Part shown: piece by piece, positions 6,476-43,769 of the stretch
Position numbering within the stretch: position 1 is the first letter of the stretch
How the letters are laid out: each line of letters opens with the position of its first letter
Origin: Bacillota bacterium
GTDB lineage: Bacteria; Bacillota; Sulfobacillia; DUSP01; DYEP01
Reading direction: 5' to 3'
Assembly: GCA_040755615.1 (NCBI GenBank)
Contig: JBFMAL010000010.1
Location: forward strand, 4,934-68,933
Length of the DNA: 64,000 bases
Program-made: the position numbers and the translations under genes
The notes under the pieces: model-generated
Told to the model about the DNA's origin: nothing
The model's input: the letters and a program-made list of their open reading frames with translations, nothing else
The model's database searches: none

Positions 6476-6507
6476 GTGTCAGTATAGTATAGGGCTGTCT
6501 CTAAACG

Positions 6508-6550
6508 AGGGCGGAAATACCCAACAGGGTTTTCTGCCCTTTAAATGTTT
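6508..6550 (+). terminator. Probable intrinsic terminator after the transporter gene
   Basis: 10-bp stem AGGGCGGAAA/TTTCTGCCCT (one G-U pair), 13-nt loop, then TTAAATGTTT. Confidence 0.5.
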
Positions 6551-6661
6551 CGGGGCCATTTGGACAACACTAGTTTTTAAGAGAAGTCGGATGGAAAAGA
6601 AGGACATTTATGCATCAATGTATAAATGCTAGTAAGAGGACAATGAGGGGAGGGAACCCGC

Positions 6662-7699: not shown

Positions 7700-7704
7700 T
7701 ATTG

Positions 7705-8019: not shown

Positions 8020-9430
8020 GAGCTACGAAGCGGTCATGAGCAGAAAGAACAAGATTATGATCGACGCCGTGGGGCTTGACTACACGCAGTTTGAGCGCGG
8101 GCCATTAGCATTTGATTACGAGGGTATGATGCGCTCAGCGGGCTATTCGATAGAGCGAGTAAAGCAGATCCAGGCGGAGACCTCCGTGGGAGACACCCCT
8201 TTGATCGAACTGCGCAACCTGGAAACGCTAGTGCGCAGGATGGCGCCGCCGGGCAAAGGCGCGAGAATACTGGTAAAGGACGAAGCCGCAAACCCCTCGG
8301 GGAGTTTCAAGGAGAGGCGCGCGGCGCTGTCGGTGTACCAGGCTGCAAAGCAAGGATACAAGGGCGTGATAGCTGCCACCAGCGGCAACTACGGCGCGGC
8401 AGTGGCCTCCCAGGCGGCCATGAGGGGCCTCAAATGTATAGTAGTCCAGGAAGTGTATGATAGCCGCGGCCTCGGACAGCCCGAGATTCTGGAGAAGGGC
8501 AGGCGATGCGAGGCGTACGGGGCTGAGGTACTGCAGCTCAGTGTGGGGCCTGAGCTGTTCTATGTATTCCTGCTCTTGCTTGAGGAAACGGGGTTCTTCA
8601 ACGCGTCGCTGTACACGCCGTTTGCCATCGCGGGCGTGGAGACGCTGGGGTACGAGGTGGGCAGGCAGGTGATGGAGCGCTACGGCAGGCAGCCCGATGC
8701 GGTGCTCATCACCCACGCGGGAGGCGGCAACGTCACGGGCACCGCCAGGGGCCTATTACAAGCTGGTTGCGATCGCACCAAGGTGGTGGGCGTTTCCGTG
8801 GACCTTTCGGGGCTTCACATGGCCTCTGACAGAGACTTTAACAGAAAATCGTTTACTACGGGTCACACCGGTTTCGGCGTGCCATTTGCGACCTGGCCCG
8901 ACAGGGCGGACGTGCCGAGAAACGCTGCCAGGCCCTTAAGGTATCTGGACCGGTACGTCACTGTTACCCAGGGCGAGGTGTTCTATGTGACGGAGCTGCT
9001 GGCCCAGCTCGAGGGACTCGAGCGCGGGCCCGCAGGCAACACGTCCCTGGCCGCTGCGCTGTCCATTGCTGCGGAGATGGACGAGGACCAGATCCTGGTG
9101 GTGCAGGAAACAGAGTACACCGGCGCAGGGAAGCACCCGACTGCCCAGCTCACGTTCGCCCGGCAGAACGGCATCACAGTACGGAGAGGCGACCCGGCGG
9201 AGAGCATACCGGGAGAACTCATCGTAATACCAGAGGGCCCGCATCAGGTGAAGGCAAAGGACATTGACCTGAGCGCGCTTGCCCGCTCATACATAAGGAA
9301 TGCGCTGGAACGATCGGGCGTCAGACAACCCGATGAATTTGAAATCGAGTTTCTTGCAAAAGAGGTCAAAAGAGATCGTGAGTTCGTAAAAGGCGTGATA
9401 GATGAGGTAACAGGAGGAAGGGAAAAGTGA
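8012..9430 (+). CDS. ortB: 2-amino-4-ketopentanoate thiolase, beta subunit (PLP-dependent, tryptophan-synthase-beta fold)
   Basis: PLP-lysine motif NPSGSFKERRA and the glycine loop HAGGGN. The start is ATG 8012 (ATGAATAA overlap with the ortA stop); ATG 8003 is also possible. Confidence 0.85.
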   Translation: MNKSYEAVMSRKNKIMIDAVGLDYTQFERGPLAFDYEGMMRSAGYSIERVKQIQAETSVGDTPLIELRNLETLVRRMAPPGKGARILVKDEAANPSGSFKERRAALSVYQAAKQGYKGVIAATSGNYGAAVASQAAMRGLKCIVVQEVYDSRGLGQPEILEKGRRCEAYGAEVLQLSVGPELFYVFLLLLEETGFFNASLYTPFAIAGVETLGYEVGRQVMERYGRQPDAVLITHAGGGNVTGTARGLLQAGCDRTKVVGVSVDLSGLHMASDRDFNRKSFTTGHTGFGVPFATWPDRADVPRNAARPLRYLDRYVTVTQGEVFYVTELLAQLEGLERGPAGNTSLAAALSIAAEMDEDQILVVQETEYTGAGKHPTAQLTFARQNGITVRRGDPAESIPGELIVIPEGPHQVKAKDIDLSALARSYIRNALERSGVRQPDEFEIEFLAKEVKRDREFVKGVIDEVTGGREK

Positions 9431-9825
9431 TCCAACGACCTGACGACTTTGCGAAGCGGCGAGCCGCGCTTGCAGGTCTTACGGAGGAACAGCTCAAGGA
9501 GCGATTCTGGTCCGCTGCTTTTGAAGTGGTGGCTCCTTTAGTCGAACTCGCCCGGCAGCATACGTCTCCTTCCATCGAGCGCTCGGTACTTCTGCGGATG
9601 GGCTTTTCCAGTATTGAGGCGAAGACTATAGTAGAGCTGTGCGCCGAGAGAGGGCTGCTCGGCAAAGGGGCCGGGCATGTCGTGCTGAAATATGCGGAGG
9701 CCAGAGGGCTTTCCATCAGGGCAGCAGGCGAGGAGCTATGTTCGAAAAAGGGATGGGATACAGTGCAGGATCTGTTCCAGAAAGGGGGACTGGCGCTTGA
9801 CACTCCACCCAAACAAGAAGATTGA
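9427..9825 (+). CDS. oraS: D-ornithine 4,5-aminomutase, S subunit
   Basis: SPSIERSVLLRMGFSSIEAKTIV and GKGAGHVV segments are characteristic of OraS. The GTG start overlaps the ortB stop. Confidence 0.85.
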   Translation: MIQRPDDFAKRRAALAGLTEEQLKERFWSAAFEVVAPLVELARQHTSPSIERSVLLRMGFSSIEAKTIVELCAERGLLGKGAGHVVLKYAEARGLSIRAAGEELCSKKGWDTVQDLFQKGGLALDTPPKQED

Positions 9826-11998
9826 CATAGAGGAAGTGCTGGCAGATCTCGAGCACTACAGGCCAAGACGGAAAGGCTGGTGCTGGAGAGAGGCCGATGG
9901 GCGAAAAGAAGGCGCCTTCGAGTACAGGCAGGCGTCAAAAAGGCTGGAGAGCAGCATTCCCCTGCCTGCTGCCAGGCATTTTGGGGGCATTGATCCTCAA
10001 CCCGATTGCGTGATTACCACGGAGATTGCCTCCGGAAGGTTCGAAGACGATATAAGGCGGATGCGCATGGCCGCGTGGCACGGGGCGGACCACATCATGG
10101 TCATCCGAACCGCGGGTCAGAGCCACTACGACGGCCTGATCGAAGGAACGCCGGAAGGGGTGGGCGGGGTACCCATCTCCAGGAAGCAGCTTCGGGCAAC
10201 GCGGAAGGCGCTGGACATGATAGAGGACGAGGTGGGCAGGCCCATCAACTTCCACTCGTACGTAAGCGGGGTGGCCGGGCCCGAAATCGCCGTATTGTTT
10301 GCCGAGGAAGGCGTAAACGGAGCCCACCAGGATCCACAGTATAACGTGTTGTACAGGAACGTGAACATGCACCGGTCCTTTGTGGATGCGGCCGTCGCAA
10401 AGGCGATCATGGCGTCAGCAGGCATGCTGCAGATCGACGGTGCCCACAACGCCAACGCCACTGCCCGGGAGGCCTTCAAGGTGATGCCCGAGCTTATGGT
10501 ACAACACGCAATAAACTGCGCATTTTCCGAGTCAGTGGGCATGCAAAAAGACAGTATTTGCTTGAGCACTGTTCCGCCCACGGCTCCTCCGGCCCCTGCG
10601 TTGTGGCTCGATCTCCCGTACGCTGTAGCGCTCAGGAAGATGTTTGAAGGGTACCGTTTCAGAGCCCAGGAAAACACAAGGTACATAGAATCCGACGCAC
10701 GCGAGGCGACAGTCACCCACGTGCTCAACCTGCTTGTGTCCCGGCTTACCTCAGCCCACATCCAGAGTACGATCACTCCTGATGAGGGCAGAAACGTCCC
10801 CTGGCATTACAATAATGTCGCTGCCATACAGACAGCTAAACAAGCCTTGGTAGGGATGGACGGCCTGTCCGAATTGGTGAAGCTTGACGAAGATGGGCCT
10901 CTCGGCGAGAAGGTGCGTGAGCTGATGGAACGCGCGGTGCTGTTTATGGAAGAGATAAGGGATTCCGGAGGCTATTTCGAGGCCGTCTCCCGGGGGTTCT
11001 TTGTGGACTCTGGCTTTTACCCGGAGAGAAATGGTGATGGCATCGCCCGAGATCCGAAGGGGGGCGTGGGCCACGGCACCATCGTCCCGCGCGATGCAGA
11101 CTATCTTGCTCCTGTATGCCATCACTTCGGGCACAATGCCCTGCCCGCTGGCATTGAGCGCCCGTGCGACCTGATTGGGGGTTGTACTCTGTGTGACCCG
11201 TCCAAGATCGTTTACATAGATGAACTGGATGAACAGGATAACGTCAGGGCGCGGCTTGAGCCTTTCCGGGAGCACAAGCAGAAAGGGCTCATAAGACCAG
11301 AGGTCCAGTGGTACGGAGATGGTATGATATCGATGACAATGTTTCTGCCCGTGTCTGAAACGATGGCGGAGCATGCTGCGGTCGCCATAGCAGAGAGGCT
11401 CGGCCTTGGCGATCCCGAGGTGATACACAAGGCGGTAATGCACCCCGCTGAAGGTACCCTGATTGAACTGAAAGCTATGGTGCCATTTGACATAGACCCC
11501 GGGAGTATCAGAATACCGGAGAAGCCGAGGACGCTTTCGGAAGAGGAAATCAGGCAGGCCATCTCCAGACGCCCGATGCACGCTGTGGCCGCGACTGTGG
11601 GTGAAGACGAGCACTCGGTCGGCATGCGTGAGATCATAGATATAAAGCATGGAGGGCTCGAAAAGTTCGGTATCCGGGTTACTTACCTCGGCACATCGGT
11701 TCCGGTGGAAAAGCTGGTAGACGCGGCTATTGAAACAGACGCAGATGCCATACTGATAAGTACGATCATAACTCACGCAGACATCCACAGGAAGAACATG
11801 AAGAGACTGCATGAGCTTTGCGTGGAAAAAGGCATCCGGGACAGGCTTTTGCTCATCTCGGGAGGCACCCAGGTCACTTATGACATGGCCCGGGAGTGTG
11901 GAATGGACGCTGGGTTTGGAAGGGGCACAAGGGGCATCGACGTGGCGAGTTTCCTGGTCAGAGAGAGGGAATCCAGATCGTCCGGCCGGGGAGTGTGA
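9797..11998 (+). CDS. oraE: D-ornithine 4,5-aminomutase, E subunit (PLP and B12 binding)
   Basis: About 733 aa with a C-terminal B12-binding Rossmann domain (ATVGEDEHSVGMREI, ISTIITH). The likely start is TTG 9797, preceded by AAGGGGGA. ATG 9692 in the ORF track would overlap oraS by 134 nt. Confidence 0.85.
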   Translation: MTLHPNKKIDIEEVLADLEHYRPRRKGWCWREADGRKEGAFEYRQASKRLESSIPLPAARHFGGIDPQPDCVITTEIASGRFEDDIRRMRMAAWHGADHIMVIRTAGQSHYDGLIEGTPEGVGGVPISRKQLRATRKALDMIEDEVGRPINFHSYVSGVAGPEIAVLFAEEGVNGAHQDPQYNVLYRNVNMHRSFVDAAVAKAIMASAGMLQIDGAHNANATAREAFKVMPELMVQHAINCAFSESVGMQKDSICLSTVPPTAPPAPALWLDLPYAVALRKMFEGYRFRAQENTRYIESDAREATVTHVLNLLVSRLTSAHIQSTITPDEGRNVPWHYNNVAAIQTAKQALVGMDGLSELVKLDEDGPLGEKVRELMERAVLFMEEIRDSGGYFEAVSRGFFVDSGFYPERNGDGIARDPKGGVGHGTIVPRDADYLAPVCHHFGHNALPAGIERPCDLIGGCTLCDPSKIVYIDELDEQDNVRARLEPFREHKQKGLIRPEVQWYGDGMISMTMFLPVSETMAEHAAVAIAERLGLGDPEVIHKAVMHPAEGTLIELKAMVPFDIDPGSIRIPEKPRTLSEEEIRQAISRRPMHAVAATVGEDEHSVGMREIIDIKHGGLEKFGIRVTYLGTSVPVEKLVDAAIETDADAILISTIITHADIHRKNMKRLHELCVEKGIRDRLLLISGGTQVTYDMARECGMDAGFGRGTRGIDVASFLVRERESRSSGRGV

Positions 11999-12002
11999 CC
12001 GC

Positions 12003-13445
12003 ATGCATTTTGACCTTCTTGTTGCGGAAATAGGAAGCACTACCACAACGGTATCCGCGTTCCGCGGCATATATGGACAGCAGCCGGAGTTTGGCGGTCA
12101 GGGTATTGCTCCCACCACCGTGCTGCAAGGCGACGTGACTGAAGGGCTCATGGCCGCCATAGAGGATCTGCGTGGGCAGCTGGGCGAGGAAATTACGTAT
12201 GACAGTATGTTCGCCTCTTCCAGTGCGGCAGGTGGGCTGAAGATGACAGTTCACGGCCTGGTCTATGATATGACTGTGAAGGCGGCACGGGAAGCGGCTC
12301 TGGGAGCCGGAGCAGTACTCAGGTACGTGACTTCGGGGGTCATGGACGGGGATGACCTCTCCCGGATCCTTGAGATAAAGCCCAACATCATCCTGCTTGC
12401 CGGCGGGGTGGACTATGGCGAGAAAACCACTGTCATCGCCAACGCAAGAAGCATCAGTCAGCTTGATATCGACGCGCCGGTGATATACGCTGGGAATGTG
12501 GCTGCCGGCGAAACTGTCAGATCAATCCTTGAGTCTGCCGGTAAGAAGGTAATATGCGTTGAAAACGTCTACCCAAGGATCGATGATCTCAATATTGAAC
12601 CGACCAGACGCGCCATCCAGAAGGTGTTCGAAGAGCACATTGTGGTCGCACCGGGTATGGAACGGATCAGGGCGATGGTTGATGGCAGAATCATACCGAC
12701 ACCGGGAGCAGTGATGAACGCTGCGATCCTCCTGTATGAGCAACTGGGTGACCTCATGGTGGTTGACGTGGGTGGGGCCACGACGGACGTCCACTCCGTG
12801 ACGTCCGGGTCAGAGGAGATCTCAGAGATGCTGATATCTCCGGAGCCCCTCGCGAAAAGGACTGTCGAAGGAGACCTCGGCATATTCGTCAATGCACCTA
12901 ACGTGGTTTCGATCATAGGGGAGGATACGTTAAGGGCCGAACTTGGCGAGGATCCGGCGTCGCTCCTTGCGAGGCGCAGCGTGATTCCGGCGGATGAGAC
13001 CGAGCGTCGCTTTGTGGAGCGGCTTACCGAGGAGGCCGTGACGGTGGCGGTATCAAGGCATGCGGGCAAGCTGAAGCACCTTTACGGCCCTACCGGGCGC
13101 ATCACTGTAGCAGAGGGTAAGGATTTAAGCAGAATCAGGTGGATCATTGGCACCGGCGGCGCATTGACCCGGTTGCCGGGGGGGAAAAGGATACTCGAAG
13201 GTATTCCCTCTGAAAGGAGGGGCAAGGAGCTTTACCCTAAGGACGCCCGTGCGCTGATAGACACTGATTACATCATGGCAGCGGCAGGCACGTTGGGAGT
13301 TCGATTTCCTGACGCAGCGGCCAAACTAATGCTCAGCAGTCTTGGATTGGGGGGGACAGGAAATGAAAAATCCCCGCATAGAGATTTACACAGAACGCAT
13401 CACGCAAAACGCAAGAGTTGTGGTGGACCTGTGCTCGAAGCATAA
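12003..13445 (+). CDS. GlmL/MutL-family aminomutase accessory (reactivase-like) protein
   Basis: Actin-like ATPase N-terminus (DLLVAEIGSTTTTVSAF) and VVDVGGATTDVHSV. ATG 12003 lies just after the oraE stop. The last ~28 codons overlap orr. Confidence 0.8.
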   Translation: MHFDLLVAEIGSTTTTVSAFRGIYGQQPEFGGQGIAPTTVLQGDVTEGLMAAIEDLRGQLGEEITYDSMFASSSAAGGLKMTVHGLVYDMTVKAAREAALGAGAVLRYVTSGVMDGDDLSRILEIKPNIILLAGGVDYGEKTTVIANARSISQLDIDAPVIYAGNVAAGETVRSILESAGKKVICVENVYPRIDDLNIEPTRRAIQKVFEEHIVVAPGMERIRAMVDGRIIPTPGAVMNAAILLYEQLGDLMVVDVGGATTDVHSVTSGSEEISEMLISPEPLAKRTVEGDLGIFVNAPNVVSIIGEDTLRAELGEDPASLLARRSVIPADETERRFVERLTEEAVTVAVSRHAGKLKHLYGPTGRITVAEGKDLSRIRWIIGTGGALTRLPGGKRILEGIPSERRGKELYPKDARALIDTDYIMAAAGTLGVRFPDAAAKLMLSSLGLGGTGNEKSPHRDLHRTHHAKRKSCGGPVLEA

Positions 13446-14430
13446 AGTGACGGTGACGGGCGTAACGAAAGGTGCCTGCGCCCACCCGGATGTGGCCTGG
13501 GCGATGCTCGACGGAGGAGTGGCTGGACTGGCTGATTCCCGTGTGGCGAACCTGGCGCGGCTTCGAAAGGCGGGAATCAGAGCGGAGATGATGTTGTTGC
13601 GTATTCCCATGCCGAGCGAAACCAAGAGCGTGGTAGATGTGGCAGATATCAGTCTAAACTCGGAAATCTCCACCATCAGGAGTCTTGGGGAAGCGGCAAT
13701 CAAAAAAGGCGTTATCCATAAGGTCATACTTATGGTAGATACGGGAGACCTGCGAGAAGGCGTGTGGCCGGATGACGTCGTTCGGACATGTGCCGAGATC
13801 CGGAAGGTCCCCGGCGTCACGCTGGAAGGGATCGGCACAAACCTGGGATGCTACGGAGGAGTGATCCCGACCGAAACTAACCTGGGTCAGCTCGTTCATT
13901 TGAAGACACAGGTGGAAGAGGCGACGGGCAGGAGGCTGAGGCTGGTTTCCGCCGGGACGTCCGCCACATTCAACCTGCTTCAGGAGGGAAAACTCCCGGA
14001 AGGCATCAACCACTTCAGGGTCGGGGAAGCAATACTCCTTGGGACGGAAGCCGTGAGCGGCAGGGTGCTTCCGGGCGCCACTTCCGATTGTTTTCGACTT
14101 GTGGCTGAAGTGGTAGAAGTGAAGACCAAACCGTCTTTACCCATCGGGGAGGTGGGCTGGGACGCTTTCAGGACGGTACCCCGGTTTGTGGACAGGGGCA
14201 TCAGGAAACGGGCCATTTTGTCCATAGGAAGGCAGGATATCAGGCCTGAGGCCATGGAGCCGCTGCTTGCGGGGTGCGAAATACTGGGCGCATCTTCCGA
14301 CCATCTAATCGTGGATGTGACAGACTGCCCGACGGAAGTCCGCGTCGGAGATGAAATGCCCTTCAGAATTGGTTACGGTGCGTTGCTTCAGGCCATGACC
14401 TCGGAGTATGTTGAGAAAGTTGTATTATGA
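13363..14430 (+). CDS. orr: Ornithine racemase (alanine-racemase-fold PLP enzyme)
   Basis: The GVTKG PLP-lysine context and its position at the end of the ora genes. ATG 13363 follows a GGGGGA RBS. Confidence 0.8.
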   Translation: MKNPRIEIYTERITQNARVVVDLCSKHKVTVTGVTKGACAHPDVAWAMLDGGVAGLADSRVANLARLRKAGIRAEMMLLRIPMPSETKSVVDVADISLNSEISTIRSLGEAAIKKGVIHKVILMVDTGDLREGVWPDDVVRTCAEIRKVPGVTLEGIGTNLGCYGGVIPTETNLGQLVHLKTQVEEATGRRLRLVSAGTSATFNLLQEGKLPEGINHFRVGEAILLGTEAVSGRVLPGATSDCFRLVAEVVEVKTKPSLPIGEVGWDAFRTVPRFVDRGIRKRAILSIGRQDIRPEAMEPLLAGCEILGASSDHLIVDVTDCPTEVRVGDEMPFRIGYGALLQAMTSEYVEKVVL

Positions 14431-14442
14431 GGTGGTGCAGGA

Positions 14443-15756
14443 ATGAGGGGCGTCGTTTTCGCCGGCCTTTGCCCCCACCCTCCGATTATGATACCGGAAA
14501 TCGGAGGTGCGGAGGTGAAGAAGGTATCAAAGACCGTAGAAGCCATGGAATATTTGGCACAGTCGGTTTTCCGCCTGGCACCTGGTGTCATACTGATGGT
14601 TTCGCCACACGCCAGGATCGGGATGGATGAGATGACCTTATTGGACACCTCCTCAGTTAGTGGCGATCTGGGCCGCTTCGGCCGACCGGATGTAACGATA
14701 GAACGTCCTGTTTGCAGGGATACTCTGGACCTTGTGGAGGAGGCGGCCAGGGCAGCGGGGATCGGAGTCGCCAGGGCGCCAAGAGGCGAAGGCGCGCTTG
14801 ATCACGGGTTCCTCGTCCCCCTTTATTTCCTCGATAAGGCAGGGGTAACCGCGCCCTTGGTATGCTTCTCCATGTCGCTTCTACCCCAAGAGAATCAAGT
14901 GCGCTTCGGGAGGCTTTTAGGTGAGGCATTGGACAGGCTGGATACCGGCTCCGCGTTTCTTGCATCAGGCGACCTGTCCCATCGGCTGACGAAGAATGCG
15001 CCGGCAGGATACAGCCCAAGAGGACGTGAGTTTGACACGTACATCGTGAGCGCGTTGGAGCGGACGGACCTTGATGCGCTCTTGAACATTGACCCGGGGC
15101 TCGTCGAGGCGGCTGGAGAATGTGGCCTGAGGCCTCTGTCCATGCTAGCAGGATTGTGCGCGGCAACGGGGCTCAATCTTGACCGCCTGAGCTACGAGGG
15201 CCCGTTCGGTGTAGGGTACGCAGTGGCTTCTTTCCAAAAAGGCGACCCGCTGGTGGCTTTGGCAAGAAGATCGCTTGAAACCTACATCAGGGACGGCCGC
15301 CGGGTGGCGCTGCCAAAGACCGGGATCCCCGATGCAAGAGCCGGTGTCTTCGTATCGCTCAAGGTCGGGGGCGAGCTGCGCGGCTGCATCGGGACGTTTG
15401 CGCCTACGCGTCCGAGTATTGCCGAGGAGATCAGGGAGATGGCCATCGCAGCGGGGACGCAGGACCCAAGGTTTCCCCCGGTCACCGCCAGCGAGCTGAG
15501 CACGCTTTCATACTCGGTGGACGTGCTTTCGCCTCCGGAAGCCATCAACGACGAGACCGCCCTGGACCCCAAGGTGTATGGGGTGATCGTGGAAAAAGGG
15601 CCGAAACGGGGGCTTCTGCTACCTGACCTTGAAGGTGTGGATACGGTCTCCGAACAGCTGTCCATCGCCAAACGCAAAGCCGGAATCAACCCATCTGACC
15701 GGGATGTACGCCTTTACAGGTTCAGGGTGGAGCGGCACAGGGAGGGAGCGCGATAA
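14443..15756 (+). CDS. Fusion protein: class III extradiol dioxygenase (LigB/Memo-superfamily) domain + AMMECR1 domain (AmmeMemoRadiSam system protein A-like)
   Basis: The N-terminal half shows GLCPHPPIMIPEIGG...ALDHGFLVPLYF...SGDLSHRL (LigB-type). The C-terminal half shows GVFVSLKVGGELRGCIGTF...PRFPP (AMMECR1). Confidence 0.8.
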   Translation: MRGVVFAGLCPHPPIMIPEIGGAEVKKVSKTVEAMEYLAQSVFRLAPGVILMVSPHARIGMDEMTLLDTSSVSGDLGRFGRPDVTIERPVCRDTLDLVEEAARAAGIGVARAPRGEGALDHGFLVPLYFLDKAGVTAPLVCFSMSLLPQENQVRFGRLLGEALDRLDTGSAFLASGDLSHRLTKNAPAGYSPRGREFDTYIVSALERTDLDALLNIDPGLVEAAGECGLRPLSMLAGLCAATGLNLDRLSYEGPFGVGYAVASFQKGDPLVALARRSLETYIRDGRRVALPKTGIPDARAGVFVSLKVGGELRGCIGTFAPTRPSIAEEIREMAIAAGTQDPRFPPVTASELSTLSYSVDVLSPPEAINDETALDPKVYGVIVEKGPKRGLLLPDLEGVDTVSEQLSIAKRKAGINPSDRDVRLYRFRVERHREGAR

Positions 15757-16757
15757 AAGAGGCACTTTACTGGGAAAAGCACAAGGAGGGCGTGCAGTGC
15801 AACCTCTGCCCTCAGGGCTGCTTCATAAGACCCGGCCGGACGGGTGTCTGTCGCGTCCGGAAAAACATCGACCAGACGCTTTATACCGTGAATTACGGGC
15901 AGGTTTCTTCCCTTGCAGTCGACCCGATTGAGAAGAAACCTCTGTACCACTTTTACCCTGGAACGACTATTCTGTCTGCAGGGACGATCGGCTGTAACCT
16001 GTCCTGCGGTTTTTGCCAGAACTGGCATATTTCACAGGCCGAAGCAGACACGCGCTACCTCTCACCGTCTGCCATGGTAGAGCTCGCACAAGAGCAGAGG
16101 AGAAAGAATCCGCGCATGATAGGTATCGCATATACCTACTCGGAGCCGCTCATGTGGTACGAGTGGGTGCTGGATGTCTCGAGGGAGGCAAAGGAGCGGG
16201 GGCTGCTTAATGTGCTGGTAACCAACGGCTACATCAGGCCTGAACCCCTTTCCGATCTGGCCCCGGAGATCGATGCGGCCAACGTTGATCTTAAGGCGTT
16301 CAGCGATGAATTCTATCGGCGAACGTGCGGTGGGCGGCTCGGACCGGTTATGGACACCATAGGACTACTAGTTAAGAAAGGAGTGCATGTGGAAGTCACG
16401 ACTCTGCTCATCGCTGGAGAGAACGATGGGGAGGAGGAAATTGCTGGAATCGCCAGGTGGCTGGCCGAGATTGATCCGGCCATCCCGTACCACATATCAA
16501 GGTATTTCCCCCATTACAAGTATACCAAGGCACCGACGCCTACCAAGACGTTGCTCAAGGCGTATGATATCGCCAGGGAGTACCTTTTTTACGTCTACCT
16601 TGGAAATATTGGGGGAGGACAGTGGTCGGATACACTCTGCCCGCGCTGCAAGAACACGGTGGTAGCCCGTTATCCCGCTCTCTCTATCCGCTTGGAACAG
16701 GGCAAATGCCCTGACTGCGGAGAACACATTCCAGTTAAATACCGATTGGGGGAATGA
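15753..16757 (+). CDS. AmmeMemoRadiSam-system radical SAM enzyme (PflA-like activase fold)
   Basis: GTIGCNLSCGFCQNW is the CxxxCxxC motif, and there is a C-terminal CPRC...CPDCG zinc ribbon. The ORF track starts at GTG 15792, but the in-frame upstream peptide IKEALYWEKHKEG looks like the family N-terminus. A proposed ATA start at 15753 follows GGAGGGAG, so the start is uncertain. Confidence 0.75.
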   Translation: MKEALYWEKHKEGVQCNLCPQGCFIRPGRTGVCRVRKNIDQTLYTVNYGQVSSLAVDPIEKKPLYHFYPGTTILSAGTIGCNLSCGFCQNWHISQAEADTRYLSPSAMVELAQEQRRKNPRMIGIAYTYSEPLMWYEWVLDVSREAKERGLLNVLVTNGYIRPEPLSDLAPEIDAANVDLKAFSDEFYRRTCGGRLGPVMDTIGLLVKKGVHVEVTTLLIAGENDGEEEIAGIARWLAEIDPAIPYHISRYFPHYKYTKAPTPTKTLLKAYDIAREYLFYVYLGNIGGGQWSDTLCPRCKNTVVARYPALSIRLEQGKCPDCGEHIPVKYRLGE

Positions 16758-16762
16758 TGTGA

Positions 16763-17695
16763 ATGGCTGTCAACATGAAAGGCAAGGACCTAGTGTCAGT
16801 GCATGACTTGACAACAGAGGAAGTCTACCAGATCTTAAGGACTGCTGAATACGTGAAAATGATGAATAAGACCGGCTCGAGGTTCCAGCCGCTTTCCGGT
16901 AAGACCCTCGGCATGATCTTTACCAAGCCTTCCACCAGGACCCGGATATCCTTTGAGGTTGCGATATACGAGCTGGGCGGGTACGGCTTGTTCCTGAGCG
17001 CCAACGAGCTTCAGCTGCGGCGCGGTGAGACCATCGCCGATACGGCCCGTGTGCTGTCAAGGTACATACACGGTATCATGATCCGCACCTTTGACCACAA
17101 GGACGTGGTTGACCTGGCGCACTACGCCACCATCCCTGTGATCAACGGGCTGACAGACCTTCTCCACCCGTGCCAGGCACTGGCTGATATCTTCACCATC
17201 TACGAGAAGAAAGGGCGGCTCGATGGCCTCAAACTCGCTTACGTCGGCGACGGCAACAACGTTGCCCATTCTCTGATGCATGCAGGGGCGAAGGTGGGCA
17301 TGAAGGTCGCAGTGGTCACGCCCGAAGGCTATGAACCCAACCCCGAAGTGGTGAGGACGGCCCGGGAAGATGCCGCCGCCACCGGAGCGGAGATCATCCT
17401 GACGAATGATCCCAAAGAGGGAGTCCGCGACGCGGACGTAGTCTACACCGATGTGTGGACCAGCATGGGCCAGGAGAAGGAGCATGATGACCGGGTGGCA
17501 GCGCTCACGCCCTACCAGGTGAACCCGTCACTATTGGCGCACGCGAAGCAGGATGTCATTTTCATGCACTGCCTCCCCGCTCACAGGGGTGAAGAAGTTG
17601 TGGATGAGGTTATTGACGGCCCGCGTTCTGTCGTATGGGACGAGGCGGAGAACCGGTTGCACGTGCAAAAGGCCATCTTAGCGTTGGTCATGTAG
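16763..17695 (+). CDS. argF: Ornithine carbamoyltransferase
   Basis: STRTRISFE, HPCQALAD, DVWTSMG and FMHCLPAHRGEE motifs. Whether it is anabolic or catabolic cannot be told from sequence; the context suggests catabolic. Confidence 0.9.
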   Translation: MAVNMKGKDLVSVHDLTTEEVYQILRTAEYVKMMNKTGSRFQPLSGKTLGMIFTKPSTRTRISFEVAIYELGGYGLFLSANELQLRRGETIADTARVLSRYIHGIMIRTFDHKDVVDLAHYATIPVINGLTDLLHPCQALADIFTIYEKKGRLDGLKLAYVGDGNNVAHSLMHAGAKVGMKVAVVTPEGYEPNPEVVRTAREDAAATGAEIILTNDPKEGVRDADVVYTDVWTSMGQEKEHDDRVAALTPYQVNPSLLAHAKQDVIFMHCLPAHRGEEVVDEVIDGPRSVVWDEAENRLHVQKAILALVM

Positions 17696-17734
17696 GATAA
17701 AAGATACTCCAGAAGATAGGGGAGAGGAAGCGCT

Positions 17735-19048
17735 GTGAAGAGAACCAAGGTGCTAATAATGGGAGCGGCCGGCAGGGACTTCCACAACTTCAATACGTAC
17801 TTCAGAGGAAATAAGAACTACGAGGTTGTATGTTTTACGGCCACTCAGATCCCGGATATCGAGGGGAGGGTGTATCCGGCTGAGCTTGCGGGGGATCTCT
17901 ATCCAAATGGGATACCCATTTACCCGGAAGAAGAACTGACTGGCCTGATTGAGAAGTATGGCGTGGACCAGGTGGTATTTGCTTACAGCGACGTCCCCCA
18001 TGAGTACGTCATGCACAAGGCCTCGCAGGTCCATGCAGCGGGCGCCGATTTCCGGCTGCTTGGACCCAAGTCTACCATGCTGAAATCCTCAAAACCCGTA
18101 GTGGCCGTATGCGCTGTGCGTACGGGCGCAGGCAAGTCGCAGACGACGAGAAAGGTCTGCGAGATCCTGCGGAACATGGGCAAGAAAGTGGTCGCGGTCC
18201 GGCACCCCATGCCGTACGGGGATCTGAGGAAGCAGGTGTGCCAGCGGTTCGCCACCTACGCTGACCTGGATTTCCACAAATGCACCATAGAAGAACGCGA
18301 GGAGTACGAGCCCCACATCGACATGGGGACGGTAGTGTACGCGGGAGTTGACTACGAGGCCATCCTGAGAGAGGCAGAAAAGGAAGCAGACGTGGTCGTG
18401 TGGGATGGAGGAAACAACGACTTCTCCTTCTATGTGGCGGACATCTACATCGTGGTCGCCGACCCTCATAGGCCGGGACACGAGCTGCGTTACCATCCGG
18501 GAGAGACCAACGCCCGCCTTGCCCACGTGGTGGTTATGAACAAGATGGAGACAGCGACCCCTGAGGGAATATCTCAAGTGAGGCACAACGTGGAGGCGGT
18601 AAACCCCGGCGTGACCTGGATCGATGCGGTATCCCCGCTGACTGTTGACGATCCGGATGCTGTCAGAGGAAAGCGTGTACTCGTCATCGAAGACGGACCC
18701 ACCCTTACCCACGGTGAGATGACGTACGGAGCAGGCATTATGGCGGCACGGAAGTTCGGCGCCGCCGAGATCATTGACCCCAGGCCGTACGCCGCAGGAA
18801 GCATTCGCGATACGTACGCGAAGTATACCCATATCGGTACGCTTTTGCCCGCCATGGGCTATGGAGAGCGGCAGGTCAGGGAACTGGAGCAGACCATCAA
18901 TGCGGCTGACTGCGATTTGGTGATAGCGGCTACGCCGATTGACCTCCGCAGAATCATGAAGATCAACAAGCCCGCCGTCCGGGTTCGCTACTCGTTGCAG
19001 GAGATCGGGCGTCCTACACTCGCTGACGTGCTCGAGAAACTCAGATAA
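17735..19048 (+). CDS. P-loop NTPase resembling the cyclic 2,3-diphosphoglycerate synthetase / predicted-GTPase family (copy 1); function unknown
   Basis: N-terminal Rossmann-like VLIMGAAGRDFHNF and a Walker A-like AVRTGAGKSQTT. 437 aa. The family assignment is from memory of cpgS-like proteins. Confidence 0.65.
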   Translation: MKRTKVLIMGAAGRDFHNFNTYFRGNKNYEVVCFTATQIPDIEGRVYPAELAGDLYPNGIPIYPEEELTGLIEKYGVDQVVFAYSDVPHEYVMHKASQVHAAGADFRLLGPKSTMLKSSKPVVAVCAVRTGAGKSQTTRKVCEILRNMGKKVVAVRHPMPYGDLRKQVCQRFATYADLDFHKCTIEEREEYEPHIDMGTVVYAGVDYEAILREAEKEADVVVWDGGNNDFSFYVADIYIVVADPHRPGHELRYHPGETNARLAHVVVMNKMETATPEGISQVRHNVEAVNPGVTWIDAVSPLTVDDPDAVRGKRVLVIEDGPTLTHGEMTYGAGIMAARKFGAAEIIDPRPYAAGSIRDTYAKYTHIGTLLPAMGYGERQVRELEQTINAADCDLVIAATPIDLRRIMKINKPAVRVRYSLQEIGRPTLADVLEKLR

Positions 19049-19071
19049 ACAATACCCACATACAAGATACA

Positions 19072-19110
19072 AGCAGGGGGGCCCCGGGAAAGAGCTCCCC
19101 TGCTTTTTTC
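19072..19110 (+). terminator. Rho-independent terminator closing the ord-to-P-loop operon
   Basis: AAGCAGGGG...CCCCTGCTT stem followed by TTTTT. Confidence 0.8.
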
Positions 19111-19213
19111 GGCTGCCCAACATCCCATATATTAAAGCAATCTACCAGGAGGATATCGCCCCGCATGCCTAGAATGATCGCAGCACTTGGATAAAAGGGG
19201 GCAGGCGCCGGGG

Positions 19214-20284
19214 ATGAAATGCCCGAGAATAGAGGTACGCCTTTCAGATATCACGTTCAATGCGGAACAGATAATCCGCCTCGCACAGCGGTCCGGCGTC
19301 GAGGTAGTAGGAGTCACCAAGGCGTTCCACGGCGATGTGAACATCGCCCGGGCCATGCTGGAAGGCGGAATAAAGAAGCTGGCGGATTCAAGGCTTGCAA
19401 GTATCGCTACGCTCAGGAAGGCGTTTCCGTCAGTACCCGTCATGCTGATCAGGTCTCCCGGGTACCACGAGTGCGAGGAGGCTGTCAGGCTTGCGGATGT
19501 ATCGCTCATTTCTTCAGTAAAGACCGCGGAATGGCTGGACCAGGCGGCTAAGTCCCAGGGTGTTACTCACGATGTCGTGCTCATGGTGGACCTTGGAGAT
19601 CTGCGCGAGGGCGTGCTCCCCGAGCATGCCGTAGATGTGGGAAGACAGATCTGCGCGCTTCGGAACGTCCGCCTTGTGGGACTCGGAGCTGAGCTGGGTT
19701 GCATTGCGGGTGTGCTTCCTTCTCCGCCTGCCATCCATACCCTCCGGCAGGTGAGAGCCGAACTTCAATCCATGTGCGAAGTGGAGCTCGATGTAATGTC
19801 GCCGGGAAGCTCATCAGCCCTCTTCCTGCTTGAACAAGGCGAGATGCCTGACTTTGTGAATCAGCTCAGGATCGGCTCGGTCATTTTGACAGGCACCGAC
19901 GATATGAGAGGCAGGATCATCCCCTGGCTCCGGCACCACGCGTTTATGCTGGTTGCCGAGCTGCTCGAAGTATACACCAAGCATTCGGCTCCGTTCGGTC
20001 CGCTCGGCACGAACGCGTTCGGTGAGATGCCTGTTTATGAGGATCTCGGAATGAGGAAAAGGGGGATCCTGTCGCTGGGCAGGGTGGACTGCCATGACGG
20101 TGATCTTACCCCTCTGGACGAAGGAGTCAGGCTCCTTGGTATATCTTCAGACCATGCCGCGCTTGACCTCACCGACTGTAGACGAGATTTCCAGGTGGGT
20201 GACGAGGTGGCATTTCACATCGGGTATACCTCAATTGTTCGCTGCTTTACCTCTCCCTTCGTGCACAGGTACTACATACGATGA
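19214..20284 (+). CDS. Alanine-racemase-fold PLP enzyme, Orr paralog (predicted amino-acid racemase, substrate unknown)
   Basis: It aligns along its whole length with the Orr at 13363 (MKCPRIEV vs MKNPRIEI; GVTKA vs GVTKG; MVDLGDLREG vs MVDTGDLREG; SSDHAALDLTDC vs SSDHLIVDVTDC). Roughly one third of residues are identical by eye. TTG 19187 is an alternative start. Confidence 0.75.
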   Translation: MKCPRIEVRLSDITFNAEQIIRLAQRSGVEVVGVTKAFHGDVNIARAMLEGGIKKLADSRLASIATLRKAFPSVPVMLIRSPGYHECEEAVRLADVSLISSVKTAEWLDQAAKSQGVTHDVVLMVDLGDLREGVLPEHAVDVGRQICALRNVRLVGLGAELGCIAGVLPSPPAIHTLRQVRAELQSMCEVELDVMSPGSSSALFLLEQGEMPDFVNQLRIGSVILTGTDDMRGRIIPWLRHHAFMLVAELLEVYTKHSAPFGPLGTNAFGEMPVYEDLGMRKRGILSLGRVDCHDGDLTPLDEGVRLLGISSDHAALDLTDCRRDFQVGDEVAFHIGYTSIVRCFTSPFVHRYYIR

Positions 20285-20395
20285 CTCAATTCGAAACGTG
20301 TTACGGATCTTGCCGGCACCTGGCCCGCTTTTGAATAGAAGAACCATCTCTTCTCCATCTTATTAGCGAGGGAAAGGTGGAGAGGGGTAAACGAC

Positions 20396-22027
20396 TTGAC
20401 ACTCAACCAGTGGATTTACTTCGGCGCGTGCGCAGTTTATATAGGATTCTTTCTTCTGTTTGTGAGGTTCTTTTACTGGAAGTATTATTCGACCAAGCAC
20501 TGCTGGTCAAAGCGTCCCTGGCTGTCAGATGAACCCGGGCCCGATGCGCCCTTTCTGTCCATTGTGATTCCAGCCAGAGAGGAAGCGGATGTGATCGCCC
20601 GGACCATCCGGCACCTGGCCGCGCTGGACTATCCCAAAGAACGCTACGAGGTTATCATCGCCTCCGATGATAAGGAGCAGCGCGACGCAGACCGGATCCG
20701 GCGAGACGCGGTGGCGGAGTGCGAGACCGCTCTCATTACGGGCGACATGCGGGCAACCGGGCTCGGCGTGTTTGCGCGTCAGATGCTCACCTGTCTTCTC
20801 AGGCAGGAGGCTGCATGTCATGGGGTGCATGCCTATGGCCGAAAGCAAGGGACTGCCCTGTTGAACGGGCTCGGGTACGGCGAAACCAGGAGGGTGATCA
20901 ACTACTGTCTGATTGACAGCAGTCTTCGCGATAGACTATGGTCGCTCGCCAGGATGCTCTATCCGACCACTCAGGAAGTGGTGGAAGAGACGATCTCCGC
21001 ACCAGGCTATGACAGACCCAGGGTTGTACATGTGTCGGTGCCCTGTGACTTCGACGGATTCTACCCTGGACAGTGCGTGGGGCAAGACGTCCGATCCACA
21101 AAAGGCAGGGCGCTGAACCGGGCATTATCCGCGCTCAGCCCGCACACTGAGATGATAGGATTCTTCGACGCGGAGAGCAGACCCGATCCGGGAGTCTTGC
21201 GGTATGTGGCGTACCGGTTAAGATCGGCAAGCCCGCCTTCTATCCTTCAGGGCCCCGTCTTTCAGGTCAGGAACTATTTCTCCATAAACCCCCTCTGCCG
21301 CATCGCAGCTCTTTATCAGGCGGTATCTCATGACTGGTACCTCCCGTACCTGTTCCGGGCGCTTCCTTTCGTAGGCGGAACCAACCTGTTCATCTCCCGG
21401 GACTTGCTCATTTCATCCGGCGGTTTTGATAGGGACATCCTTACCGAGGACCTTGAGTATGGTGTCAGGGCGTACCTGGTCTGGGGTGCATGGCCCGAGT
21501 ATCTACCGTACCCGTCCAGTGAACAGACCCCGCCCACCATAATGGCGTTCTTCAGGCAACGGATGCGATGGGGTACGGGGCACCTGCAGGTAATGAAGAA
21601 AGTATCCGGGATGACAGATGTAGACCCGTTGAAGCGAAGAGTTCTTTTAAGAAGGCTCTTCTTGAAAGGGCAGGCAGAATGGATCATGTATCAAACTGCC
21701 ACGCTGGTACCTCCTGCTATGATTGTGCTCTGGCACCTGGGCATGGTTGATCCTTCCGCAGCGCCGGCTATACTCCGTTACTTCCTGCACGTCATCACCT
21801 TGACCTACTTCGGGTTCACCTTCTACGTCTTCAGAAGGTATTCCGATTATATTGATAAGAATACGGCGCCCAAGACTGCGTTAGCTTGCTGCATGGCGTA
21901 CCTTGGATTGCTGCTCCTTCCTCTTGCCGCATTTCTCTTTCCATTTCCTTATACTGCAGCGCTTATACGCTATTCGATGACTGCGCGCCCGATGTCCTGG
22001 ACAAAGACGCCGCGGACTAGGGAATGA
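20396..22027 (+). CDS. Membrane-bound family 2 glycosyltransferase (processive type) with a large insertion in the catalytic domain
   Basis: N-terminal TM helix, IVIPAREE, IASDD, FFDAESRPD and the Q-x-x-RW motif (RQRMRWGTGHLQ), plus C-terminal TM helices. TTG start. Confidence 0.75.
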   Translation: MTLNQWIYFGACAVYIGFFLLFVRFFYWKYYSTKHCWSKRPWLSDEPGPDAPFLSIVIPAREEADVIARTIRHLAALDYPKERYEVIIASDDKEQRDADRIRRDAVAECETALITGDMRATGLGVFARQMLTCLLRQEAACHGVHAYGRKQGTALLNGLGYGETRRVINYCLIDSSLRDRLWSLARMLYPTTQEVVEETISAPGYDRPRVVHVSVPCDFDGFYPGQCVGQDVRSTKGRALNRALSALSPHTEMIGFFDAESRPDPGVLRYVAYRLRSASPPSILQGPVFQVRNYFSINPLCRIAALYQAVSHDWYLPYLFRALPFVGGTNLFISRDLLISSGGFDRDILTEDLEYGVRAYLVWGAWPEYLPYPSSEQTPPTIMAFFRQRMRWGTGHLQVMKKVSGMTDVDPLKRRVLLRRLFLKGQAEWIMYQTATLVPPAMIVLWHLGMVDPSAAPAILRYFLHVITLTYFGFTFYVFRRYSDYIDKNTAPKTALACCMAYLGLLLLPLAAFLFPFPYTAALIRYSMTARPMSWTKTPRTRE

Positions 22028-22064
22028 GAGTTTCAGGCACAATACTACCAGGGAGGGATGTTCC

Positions 22065-23471
22065 ATGCCGAAAAGGATTGTCATAATGGGAGCGGCAGGC
22101 AGGGATTTCCATAACTTTAACGTTTTTTTCAGGCATAACCCTGAGTACCAGGTGGTTGCGTTCACCGCCACGCAGATCCCAGATATTTCGGGGCGAGTGT
22201 ACCCGCCAGAGCTCGCCGGCCCCAACTACCCTGAGGGGATCCCCATATATCCTGAGGAAGAACTCGAAGCGCTAATAAGGAACGCCAGGATCGACCAGGT
22301 GGTATTCGCTTACAGTGACGTATCGCACCAGTACGTGATGCACAAGGCTTCAGTAGCGCTGTCATGCGGCGCTGATTTCGTCTTGATGGGCCCCAGGGCA
22401 ACCATGCTGGAATCGACCAAACCGGTGGTGTCAGTTGTGGCCGTGAGAACGGGCGTGGGGAAGAGTCAAACCACGAGGCGGGTTTCTGATATCATCAGGA
22501 GTCTCGGGCTCTCTCTGTGCGTGGTCAGGCATCCCATGCCTTACGGCGATCTTGCCCAGCAGACAGTGCAGCGTTTTGCGGCGTACGAAGACCTGGACAG
22601 GCACAGGTGTACAATAGAAGAGAGGGAGGAGTACGAACCGCACATAGACCGGGGGAACGTGGTATATGCAGGGGTGGACTACGAGCGCATCCTCAGGGAG
22701 GCCGAGAGGGAAGCAGACGTAATCCTGTGGGACGGGGGAAACAACGATATGCCCTTTTACAAGCCGGACATAAATATCGTCCTGGTTGATCCCCACAGGC
22801 CTGGTCACGAGCTGATGTATCACCCTGGTGAAACCAACCTGCGGGCGGCGGATTGTGTGGTGATAAACAAGGTAGACACGGCAGACGGCGATGACGTGGA
22901 CGAGGTAAGAGATAGTGTACATCAGGTAAACCCGAGAGCGGTGGTGATCGAGGCCGCTTCTCCCATTTTCGTCGAGACTCCTGCCCAGGTGAGGGGCAAG
23001 AGGGTTCTGGTGGTTGAGGACGGACCGACTCTCACTCACGGAGAGATGACCTATGGTGCGGGCATAATTGCAGCGAAGAAGTTTGGTGCGGCGGAGATCA
23101 TCGATCCCAGGGGAGCCGCGACGCCCGCGATCAGGGCCGTGTACGACAAGTATCCACACATAGGCCCATTACTGCCGGCAATGGGTTACGGGCAGAACCA
23201 GATCGCAGAACTCAGAGAAACCATAAACGCAGTAGACTGTGACACGGTGATCATCGCGACTCCAATAGACTTAAGGAGGGTAGCCGACTTCGTCCATCCG
23301 GCGGTACGTGTGAGATACGAGCTGCAGGAGATAGGCAAACCTGATCTTGTTGATGTGATTTCGCCGATTTTGTCCAAGTATGCCACGCACACGGAGGAAT
23401 CTGCACCCGCATCGCCCAATTACCTACTGAATCGACCCGCTATGGAATATAAGGAATATAACAGATGTTAG
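22065..23471 (+). CDS. P-loop NTPase resembling the cyclic 2,3-diphosphoglycerate synthetase / predicted-GTPase family (copy 2)
   Basis: Collinear with copy 1, and roughly two thirds of residues are identical by eye (IVIMGAAGRDFHNFN, AVRTGVGKSQTT, CTIEEREEYEPHID, EDGPTLTHGEMTYGAG). It carries an extra ~30-aa C-terminal tail. Confidence 0.65.
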   Translation: MPKRIVIMGAAGRDFHNFNVFFRHNPEYQVVAFTATQIPDISGRVYPPELAGPNYPEGIPIYPEEELEALIRNARIDQVVFAYSDVSHQYVMHKASVALSCGADFVLMGPRATMLESTKPVVSVVAVRTGVGKSQTTRRVSDIIRSLGLSLCVVRHPMPYGDLAQQTVQRFAAYEDLDRHRCTIEEREEYEPHIDRGNVVYAGVDYERILREAEREADVILWDGGNNDMPFYKPDINIVLVDPHRPGHELMYHPGETNLRAADCVVINKVDTADGDDVDEVRDSVHQVNPRAVVIEAASPIFVETPAQVRGKRVLVVEDGPTLTHGEMTYGAGIIAAKKFGAAEIIDPRGAATPAIRAVYDKYPHIGPLLPAMGYGQNQIAELRETINAVDCDTVIIATPIDLRRVADFVHPAVRVRYELQEIGKPDLVDVISPILSKYATHTEESAPASPNYLLNRPAMEYKEYNRC

Positions 23472-23492
23472 GGTCGACCGGGAGGGTAGCGA

Positions 23493-23765
23493 TTGGACCT
23501 GAAGACAGCACTGGGAACTTTTGCGTTGATCTTCTTTGCGGAACTTGGGGACAAAACACAGCTGACCACGATGATGCTGGCAGCTCAGAGCAAGGCCCCT
23601 GTGGCGGTGTTTGTGGGCGCTGCAGGGGCTCTTGTGCTCACTTCTTTGCTGGGAGTAGTCTTTGGAGAGACAGTCACACGCCTGATTCCTGTCACCTACG
23701 TGAGGACCGGTGCGGGAATTGCCTTTATCGTACTCGGAGCCCTTCTTATCTCAGGCAAGCTTTGA
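23493..23765 (+). CDS. UPF0016 (GDT1/TMEM165) family half-size membrane protein
   Basis: Signature E-x-G-D-K-T (FFAELGDKTQL) and three predicted TM helices in 90 aa. Confidence 0.75.
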   Translation: MDLKTALGTFALIFFAELGDKTQLTTMMLAAQSKAPVAVFVGAAGALVLTSLLGVVFGETVTRLIPVTYVRTGAGIAFIVLGALLISGKL

Positions 23766-24716
23766 GGGTTTACCGCAGTTCGGACAGTACTTCCTAACGA
23801 CAGGCACCAGCGCCCGGCATTCAGGACAGGCGGCCTGAAGCAGAAACCCACACGACGGGCAGTACAATTCACCCCTGACGCCGAATCCGCAGGCCGGGCA
23901 CTGCCCTTTACGGAATCGCTGGTTACGTACCCGCTCAGGATTAGTTACGTAGCGCTTCAGGGCGACCAGTGCAGCGCCCGTTGCAACCGTACCCGCAACA
24001 CTGACAGCGATCTGGGCAACGTCTCTCACGAGGTGCCATGCGTATTGAGCGGACATGACGACTGCCTGAACCGTAGAAAAGCCCAGGAAGGCGGTGCCTA
24101 GTACAAGGTGTCTTGATCTCTTTGCCCTGAGCACTTGCCATATCCAGTAGGAAAGGCCAAAGACCGGAAATACATATGCGAACCTGACCAGAAACAGTTT
24201 CAGTTCATAAACGTTCATTGCCTTTGAGTATGATGCGTTAATATCATCATGGGCGCGGTTGTAGGCTTCCTGGAGCGCCGAAAGCTCCTGCGCAAACCCG
24301 GACCTTAGGGCGGTGGCGGCATCCAATTCCACCATTGCAGATTCCATGGTCTGCCGTGACTCCTCGTACCTCTTCTCCTTGGCCGGATCGGCAAGCCCTT
24401 TCTCTAGGCTCACGCGGTATTCTTCACGCCTGAACTCGTACTCCACTTTTGCCCGCTCAAATGTTTCACGGCTTTGATGGAGGAGAGAGTCGGCGTACGA
24501 GAGCTTCCGCTGGGCCTCGAAGAGACGCTCTGATAACTCGGTAAGCCCGGCGCGTTGTTCCAGCTGGTAGTAATCCGGACGGGGCACTAACCGGGTGATA
24601 CGGTTCATAATCCAAAAACCGCCCATAAGCATGAATATAACCATGCCCAGGGCCAGGATCTTCTCGGCGCGGGAATACTCAATTAGATGGCTCTCCTCTT
24701 CAGCGTGCATCAACAT
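23751..24716 (-). CDS. Membrane protein with a coiled-coil region and a C-terminal double zinc ribbon; function unknown
   Basis: Hydrophobic helices, a long charged heptad-like segment, and CPACG...CPSCG...CPEC...CPNCG at the C-terminus. Confidence 0.55.
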   Translation of the reverse strand: MLMHAEEESHLIEYSRAEKILALGMVIFMLMGGFWIMNRITRLVPRPDYYQLEQRAGLTELSERLFEAQRKLSYADSLLHQSRETFERAKVEYEFRREEYRVSLEKGLADPAKEKRYEESRQTMESAMVELDAATALRSGFAQELSALQEAYNRAHDDINASYSKAMNVYELKLFLVRFAYVFPVFGLSYWIWQVLRAKRSRHLVLGTAFLGFSTVQAVVMSAQYAWHLVRDVAQIAVSVAGTVATGAALVALKRYVTNPERVRNQRFRKGQCPACGFGVRGELYCPSCGFLLQAACPECRALVPVVRKYCPNCGKPSKLA

Positions 24717-43767: not shown

Positions 43768-43769
43768 AG

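Follow-up and report, generated by a model that had tools for sequence, protein, structure and literature searches.

Two paralogs most likely belonging to the ArcE (arginine synthetase) family in a Bacillota genome, one of them closing an oxidative ornithine gene cluster

We analysed a window of 64,000 nucleotides from a Bacillota bacterium (assembly GCA_040755615.1, contig JBFMAL010000010.1, positions 4,934 to 68,933, forward strand), in which two related genes, here named arcE1 (17735-19048, + strand, 437 amino acids) and arcE2 (22065-23471, + strand, 468 amino acids), most likely code for members of the ArcE (arginine synthetase) family, as judged from sequence and fold. arcE1 is the final gene of a cluster that carries the oxidative ornithine pathway together with an ornithine carbamoyltransferase (OTC), and we hold it to be quite probable that arginine is fermented by this organism through OTC and ornithine, arcE2 being an old paralog that likely catalyzes the same reaction. 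Coordinates are those of the window unless a label precedes them, G, C and L denoting our labels for genomes, contigs and loci.

The two products align without gaps over 432 residues, of which 295 are identical (68%; 79% positives, 613 bits in BLASTP), and DNA identity amounts to 64% across the 432 aligned codons. A first-pass annotation of the window, made from the letters alone, was therefore right in describing a collinear pair about two thirds identical and recognizably similar at the DNA level, as it was in reading a Walker A-like motif, VRTG(A/V)GKSQTT, in both translations (GAGKSQTT and GVGKSQTT), in which G131, G133 and K134 vary little or not at all among ArcE homologues. For arcE1, the GTG start at 17735 suits the N-termini of the homologues better than the internal Met9, and it was preferred because a start at Met9 would drop the conserved column I8. 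The product of arcE2 ends in a non-conserved C-terminal tail of about 30 amino acids, which has no motif in common with the tails of other long copies. A six-frame search of the whole host assembly (G000; 2.45 Mb, 64 contigs, 90% complete) identified arcE1 and arcE2 as its sole two copies.

The founder of the family, TK2200 of Thermococcus kodakarensis, once annotated as 'hypothetical protein/putative GTPase', is the arginine synthetase ArcE, which catalyzes the reaction Arg + ADP + Pi <-> Cit + ATP + NH3 (Michimori 2024, PMC11032458). According to the same study, arcE homologues are found near arcB and arcC, arcE stands in for arcA in arcC-holding genomes, the predicted structure of TK2200 resembles LpxK, and ArcE is only distantly related to cyclic 2,3-diphosphoglycerate (cDPG) synthetase (cDPGS), whose homologues form the outgroup. 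It was the arginine theme of the gene neighbourhoods that pointed to this work. Holders of arcE named in it include Thermosediminibacter, Caldisericum, Synechocystis, Hyperthermus, Pyrodictium and many others, and the membership of arcE1 and arcE2 is judged from homologues in these genera. Specifically, arcE1 is 48% identical (208 of 432 amino acids, one gap) to the ArcE-family protein P0386 of Hyperthermus butylicus, and arcE2 49% identical (211 of 432, one gap) to protein P0422 of Pyrodictium occultum, both obtained by search from a crenarchaeal representative. Closer homologues of arcE1 occur in Thermosediminibacter (73% identity) and Caldisericum (69%), with 73-75% identity across the Thermosediminibacter and Koleobacter homologues. 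Thousands of full-length relatives were found for both copies, the best of them 72-75% identical and belonging to Bacillota and Chloroflexota, while a scan of species genomes recovered proteins 66-73% identical in Caldisericota, Aminicenantes, Calditrichota, Thermoplasmatota, Bathyarchaeota and Heimdallarchaeota; the ArcE family is huge and slowly evolving. A cluster look-up with ten distant representatives of the family returned no Thermococcales name.

Profile libraries contributed little to this assignment. Neither Pfam-A nor NCBIfam release 20 holds a model covering the ArcE family: Pfam assigned no family to arcE1 and matched arcE2 only with CobW, in a stretch of 63 residues at the profile end that scored 23 bits, while in NCBIfam both copies went unassigned, HypB and CobW falling far under cut-off. 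ArcE proteins and the GT2 protein encoded upstream of arcE2 bear generic names alone in the protein atlas, and in the databases homologues go under 'predicted GTPase' or 'cyclic 2,3-diphosphoglycerate synthase'. Homology to ArcE, though not profile searches, thus largely moves the pair to a characterized family different from the one first proposed. The first-pass view that the family is essentially uncharacterized has to be given up, the archaeal founder having been the subject of biochemical and genetic studies published in 2024 and 2026 (Michimori, Yokooji and Atomi, PMC11032458; Michimori et al., PMC13260591); the searchable literature on ArcE contained nothing on the bacterial enzyme, including any characterization of it, or on paralogs.

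Structure prediction is consistent with the sequence evidence. The AlphaFold2 model of the arcE1 product (predicted local distance difference test, pLDDT, 94.5; predicted template-modelling score, pTM, 0.92) found its best solved fold in cDPGS (8oru, Foldseek E 2.8e-17, 15-16% identity), followed by LpxK (4ehx/4ehy, E about 1e-9; 2.1e-9 for 4ehx), and HypB and MeaB appeared as distant fold matches only (MeaB, E 2e-3); no ArcE structure is deposited in the PDB. That these are P-loop enzymes with archaeal cDPGS as nearest solved fold was correctly foreseen by the first reading. The pair shows the features of ArcE, namely full-length homology, a P-loop fold like that of LpxK and cDPGS, a neighbourhood with OTC or carbamate kinase (CK), and a genome in which arcC, but no arcA, scores above cut-off; of these, the neighbourhood applies to arcE1, and arcE2 adjoins neither OTC nor CK.

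The cluster closed by arcE1 opens with ord, ortA, ortB, oraS, oraE, a glmL-related gene and orr (6662-14430, + strand), the genes of the oxidative ornithine pathway. NCBIfam equivalog cut-offs were exceeded by Ord, OrtA, OrtB, OraE and the ornithine degradation protein related to GlmL; Orr (orr1), with 441 bits, fell short of its cut-off of 480, and oraS was assigned by position alone. Between orr and OTC lies the AmmeMemoRadiSam pair amrAB-amrS (14443-16757, + strand), an AMMECR1/LigB fusion and a radical SAM gene recognized through the Pfam families AMMECR1, LigB and Radical_SAM. The OTC gene, of the arcB/argF type (16763-17695, + strand; TIGR00658, 451 bits, cut-off 281), stands directly upstream of arcE1, where it had first been placed. 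Beyond arcE1, a G+C-rich stem followed by TTTTTT (19072-19109, + strand) is read from the sequence as an intrinsic terminator, and it is kept at locus L003 of the sister genome, a metagenome-assembled genome labelled Symbiobacterium sp. whose arcE1 and arcE2 are 96% and 94% identical to those of the window. This hairpin was recognized by eye and was not listed on the + strand by a consensus terminator scan; an Rfam scan of 6000-24500 gave no match. Together, ord-ortAB-oraSE-glmL-orr, amrAB-amrS, OTC and arcE1 read as one 11-gene operon.

We infer from these sequences that ArcE1 and ArcE2 would perform the ArcE reaction in the catabolic direction and with equal function. In the proposed route, ArcE1 would convert arginine into citrulline with the yield of one ATP, the adjoining OTC would split citrulline into ornithine and carbamoyl phosphate, and the unlinked CK would draw a second ATP from carbamoyl phosphate. 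Ornithine would then be converted by the racemase into D-ornithine, by D-ornithine aminomutase into 2,4-diaminopentanoate and by 2,4-diaminopentanoate dehydrogenase into 2-amino-4-oxopentanoate, from which the OrtAB thiolase would produce acetyl-CoA and alanine. The seven upstream genes are the same as those of the oxidative ornithine cluster of Clostridium sticklandii (ord, ortA, ortB, oraS, oraE, GlmL-like, orr), six of the seven being here above or near the equivalog cut-offs. The cluster of the window is extended by amrAB-amrS, OTC and arcE, and arginine is therefore the likely input instead of free ornithine. The route also resembles the arginine deiminase (ADI) pathway ArcA-ArcB-ArcC, in which arginine is likewise turned into citrulline, then into ornithine and carbamoyl phosphate, and finally into ATP, OTC and CK being common to both; the ArcA step, however, is hydrolytic and performed by a protein of unrelated fold, so that one ATP is gained per arginine as against two with ArcE. 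With the T. kodakarensis system the present one shares the family (through crenarchaeal members), the P-loop kinase fold resembling LpxK, OTC and CK as partners, and the lack of arcA and of a detected carbamoyl phosphate synthetase. It differs in its bacterial host, in its two paralogs, in its unlinked CK, and in the fate of ornithine, which T. kodakarensis uses for proline, whereas here arcE1 is joined to an oxidative (Stickland-type) operon in which ornithine would be burned.

The link between arcE and arginine genes recurs well beyond this genome, as was established from neighbourhoods based on our own calling and clustering of open reading frames (ORFs), some spurious antisense ORFs included. 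Of 80 loci from other phyla, 12 have OTC and arcE side by side (Bacillota, Caldisericota, Aminicenantes, Actinomycetota and Chloroflexota), as do most loci of the same class, where CK-OTC-arcE is contiguous in 11 of 40, and the order amrAB-amrS-(CK)-OTC-arcE, often with ornithine genes before it, is found across many families of the class. One Actinomycetota locus displays the order oraE-glmL-orr-arcE-OTC. The association with amino acid genes anticipated in the first-pass annotation is hence conserved in other genomes. A link to arginine of a different kind is found in Chloroflexota, where arcE immediately follows the arginyl-tRNA synthetase gene argS in 35 loci, mostly of the Anaerolineae type. 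These Chloroflexota loci (L005-L082) show a housekeeping string, rpsT-argS-arcE-obg-nadD, with neither OTC nor CK.

Gene content elsewhere in the genome was also examined. CK (arcC) is present (433 bits, above cut-off), and no arcA above cut-off was found in G000, in which the best match of the genome search reached 44 bits against a cut-off of 489, or in five relatives. Some 19 kb downstream of the pair lie argG and argH (42541-45137, + strand; G000:C10:47474-50070; TIGR00032, 563 bits, and TIGR00838, 601 bits), and since they provide the canonical route from citrulline to arginine, the genome does not depend on ArcE for arginine synthesis. The large subunit of carbamoyl phosphate synthetase (TIGR01369) was not found in G000 (90% complete) or in the sister genome G001 (99% complete); pyrB, argG, argH, two OTCs and CK are present, and the relatives G002 and G043 possess carB. 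T. kodakarensis is likewise without carbamoyl phosphate synthetase (PMC13260591), and by analogy carbamoyl phosphate may here be supplied from arginine through ArcE and OTC, or by CK.

Several points weigh against the arginine fermentation reading. Family membership leans on homologues from the genera named by the discoverers of TK2200, and an enzyme assay for any bacterial ArcE member was not found in the searchable literature. Four proteins of about 290-330 amino acids with weak matches to ADI models (G000:C19:26289-27137, C7:1469-2314, C41:22217-22840 and C8:34499-35113), arginine-deiminase-like members of the guanidino-modifying superfamily, might give an alternative route from arginine to citrulline; one of these ORFs, scanned whole (308 amino acids), scored 127 bits against the cut-off of 489. 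CK lies outside the arcE1 operon, on a different contig, where its neighbours include a hydantoinase-like gene and pyrB. The presence of argG and argH makes the direction of the ArcE reaction unreadable from gene content alone, and the reading does not account for the keeping of two copies or for the GT2 gene beside arcE2.

The surroundings of the sole CK gene (L170, G000:C26:22000-38000) comprise a dihydropyrimidinase/hydantoinase-like gene, a branched-chain-type ATP-binding cassette (ABC) transporter, an amidase of the nitrilase family, pyrB and a gene for histidine ammonia-lyase, a combination that suggests a second pathway for carbamoyl compounds.

The first-pass annotation had regarded the duplication as recent, a view that the divergence of the copies does not support. 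Between arcE1 and arcE2 the proportion of synonymous differences (pS) is 0.80, that is, synonymous sites are saturated, and nonsynonymous divergence (dN) is 0.27, as against a synonymous divergence (dS) of about 0.5 between the host and its sister species; as the sister keeps both copies, the duplication pre-dates the species split. Identity of each copy to homologues from other phyla (72-75%) equals or exceeds that between the two paralogs (68%). The same pattern extends to the class, in which 16 of 61 genomes hold two full-length copies at 57-70% identity, each of which has, outside its own genome, a match at least as close as its paralog. In a careful tree (LG+C20), the nearest partner of arcE2 is the only copy found in G018 (support 96/86), and both then join a clade from five other families made up of second copies or copies linked to GT2 (83/79, 96/70), while arcE1 is placed elsewhere; a quick tree separates the copies too. 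The backbone of the family tree is star-like, and a genus-specific duplication was not rejected by approximately unbiased (AU) tests (p 0.535 under LG+G4; p 0.225 under LG+C20, with a log-likelihood 25.8 lower). The duplication thus appears not to be recent, and it may be genus-specific or deeper.

Both copies are under strong purifying selection, the ratio of nonsynonymous to synonymous rates (omega) relative to the sister genome being 0.034 for arcE1, 0.036 for arcE2 and 0.042 for OTC. At the 83 columns conserved in at least 85% of 34 diverse homologues, arcE2 shows no deviation and arcE1 a single one, and no residue column was found that is diagnostic of the putative second-copy clade. The sub-functionalization suggested in the first-pass annotation finds no support in copies that retain essentially all family-conserved residues. 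Most likely, arcE2 catalyzes the same reaction as arcE1 under different regulation.

Past the arcE1 terminator, arcE2 belongs to a separate unit, the string orr2, GT2, arcE2 and half-GDT1. The gene orr2 (19187-20284, + strand) encodes an Orr-like pyridoxal 5'-phosphate (PLP)-dependent racemase that is 41% identical to orr1 and scores 341 bits with NF040742, under the cut-off of 480; it is followed by the gene of a membrane GT2 glycosyltransferase (20396-22027, + strand; Pfam Glyco_trans_2_3) with the DAE, TED and QRMRW motifs of the processive type and weak PgaC/BcsA-type matches, directly upstream of arcE2. The position of arcE2 after an Orr-like racemase and a GT2 enzyme is accordingly as first described. 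In the sister genome, however, orr2 is absent (window 19048-20396 compared with L003:10400-10633), the arcE1 terminator being followed there by a conserved GT2 leader of about 80 nucleotides. The link between the racemase and arcE2 is therefore not conserved. GT2 adjoins arcE in nine more loci from several families of the class (L130, L137, L143, L145, L151, L159, L161, L168, L169) and stands between OTC and arcE in G030 and G051, and in four genomes (G012, G039, G055, G035) the GT2-linked arcE is the only copy, which makes GT2 look like a habitual operon neighbour rather than a sign of a special enzyme; no functional link between GT2 and arginine metabolism was found. A half-size GDT1/UPF0016 membrane protein gene (23493-23765, + strand; PF01169, 83 bits) follows arcE2 and also follows arcE in about ten loci of the class (e.g. 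L136:6148-6965, L157, L163), often with a Fur-family gene, and is a conserved feature of the arcE neighbourhood.

Given this context, arcE2, perhaps together with a class-wide lineage of second copies, might instead have diverged towards another guanidino or ureido substrate (agmatine, homoarginine or a D-isomer supplied by orr2 might be imagined), towards the synthetic direction, or towards joint action with GT2. The retention of two copies in 16 of the 61 genomes, the clade uniting arcE2 with second or GT2-linked copies of five other families, the nine further loci with GT2 next to arcE, the C-terminal tails that second copies often carry and the strong purifying selection on both genes speak for such a divergence. 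We nevertheless consider it unlikely, since arcE2 departs from none of the 83 conserved columns, no column sets the second-copy clade apart, the tails lack a common motif, the clade itself is only moderately supported, orr2 is missing from the sister genome, and a GT2-linked arcE is the sole copy in four genomes. A stronger form of the idea, in which an old, class-wide 'ArcE-II' lineage, often GT2-linked, has a distinct job and is not a redundant isoenzyme, is likewise unlikely; its job would be the use of another guanidino or ureido substrate, the formation of arginine from citrulline and ammonia, or a constitutive supply of carbamoyl phosphate to a genus apparently devoid of the synthetase for it.

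It is highly improbable that the pair are cDPG-synthetase-like enzymes acting on a phosphorylated metabolite such as 2,3-bisphosphoglycerate (2,3-BPG), acyl phosphates or carbamoyl phosphate, as the first-pass annotation and many database records named 'cyclic 2,3-diphosphoglycerate synthase' would have it. cDPGS is the best solved-structure match and the sole sequence match in the PDB; that match, however, covers a partial stretch (phmmer E 5.7e-4), and an identity of 15-16% in the structural alignment contrasts with the 48-49% shared with the ArcE clade, so that the cDPGS label stood for the fold and failed for the sequence. Moreover, cDPGS homologues are the outgroup of ArcE (PMC11032458), and the neighbours of arcE are OTC, CK and argS, not glycolytic genes. 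The enzyme of Methanothermus fervidus (8ORK/8ORU, PMC10690619), which binds 2,3-diphosphoglycerate through E45, K145 and R146, resembles the arcE1 model over its whole length, both having two domains, the N-terminal one of beta/alpha type and the other forming the P-loop kinase core, and shares ATP-dependent phosphoryl chemistry, but it differs in substrate and reaction and is confined to hyperthermophilic methanogens; the NCBI name is probably a misnomer for arcE-type proteins. The second-best fold match, the tetraacyldisaccharide 4'-kinase LpxK (4EHX/4EHY), is likewise related by the fold of its P-loop core alone, being a membrane-associated lipid A kinase with 12% identity that lacks the N-terminal domain.

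Equally remote is the idea of an NTPase chaperone of the G3E type (MeaB/CobW-like), charged with loading or repairing the B12 cofactor of D-ornithine aminomutase, for although arcE1 shares its operon with oraSE and a GlmL-like reactivase, HypB and MeaB occur among the distant fold matches and arcE2 has its weak CobW/HypB match, the homology to the ArcE clade is full-length, cDPGS and LpxK, both kinases, are far nearer in fold (E 1e-17 to 1e-9) than MeaB is (2e-3), and the association with OTC and CK persists without the aminomutase in Caldisericota, Aminicenantes and Chloroflexota. The label of G3E GTPase (PF02492) was rejected on its own terms, with no Pfam match on arcE1 and 23 bits over 63 residues on arcE2.

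With the pair read as arginine synthetase family enzymes, arcE1 and arcE2 are further bacterial members of ArcE, and the metabolism involved is largely known, the system not being new in kind. The assignment sets right a label common in the databases ('cyclic 2,3-diphosphoglycerate synthase' or 'GTPase'), and the recurrent ArcE paralog pairs of the class, along with a genus that seems to lack carbamoyl phosphate synthetase, raise small questions of their own. The assignment also offers a coherent reading of the 11-gene operon as one for arginine fermentation, which would gain two ATP by substrate-level phosphorylation ahead of the oxidative Stickland branch, and it would extend the arginine synthetase pathway described in 2024 to uncultured anaerobic Bacillota.

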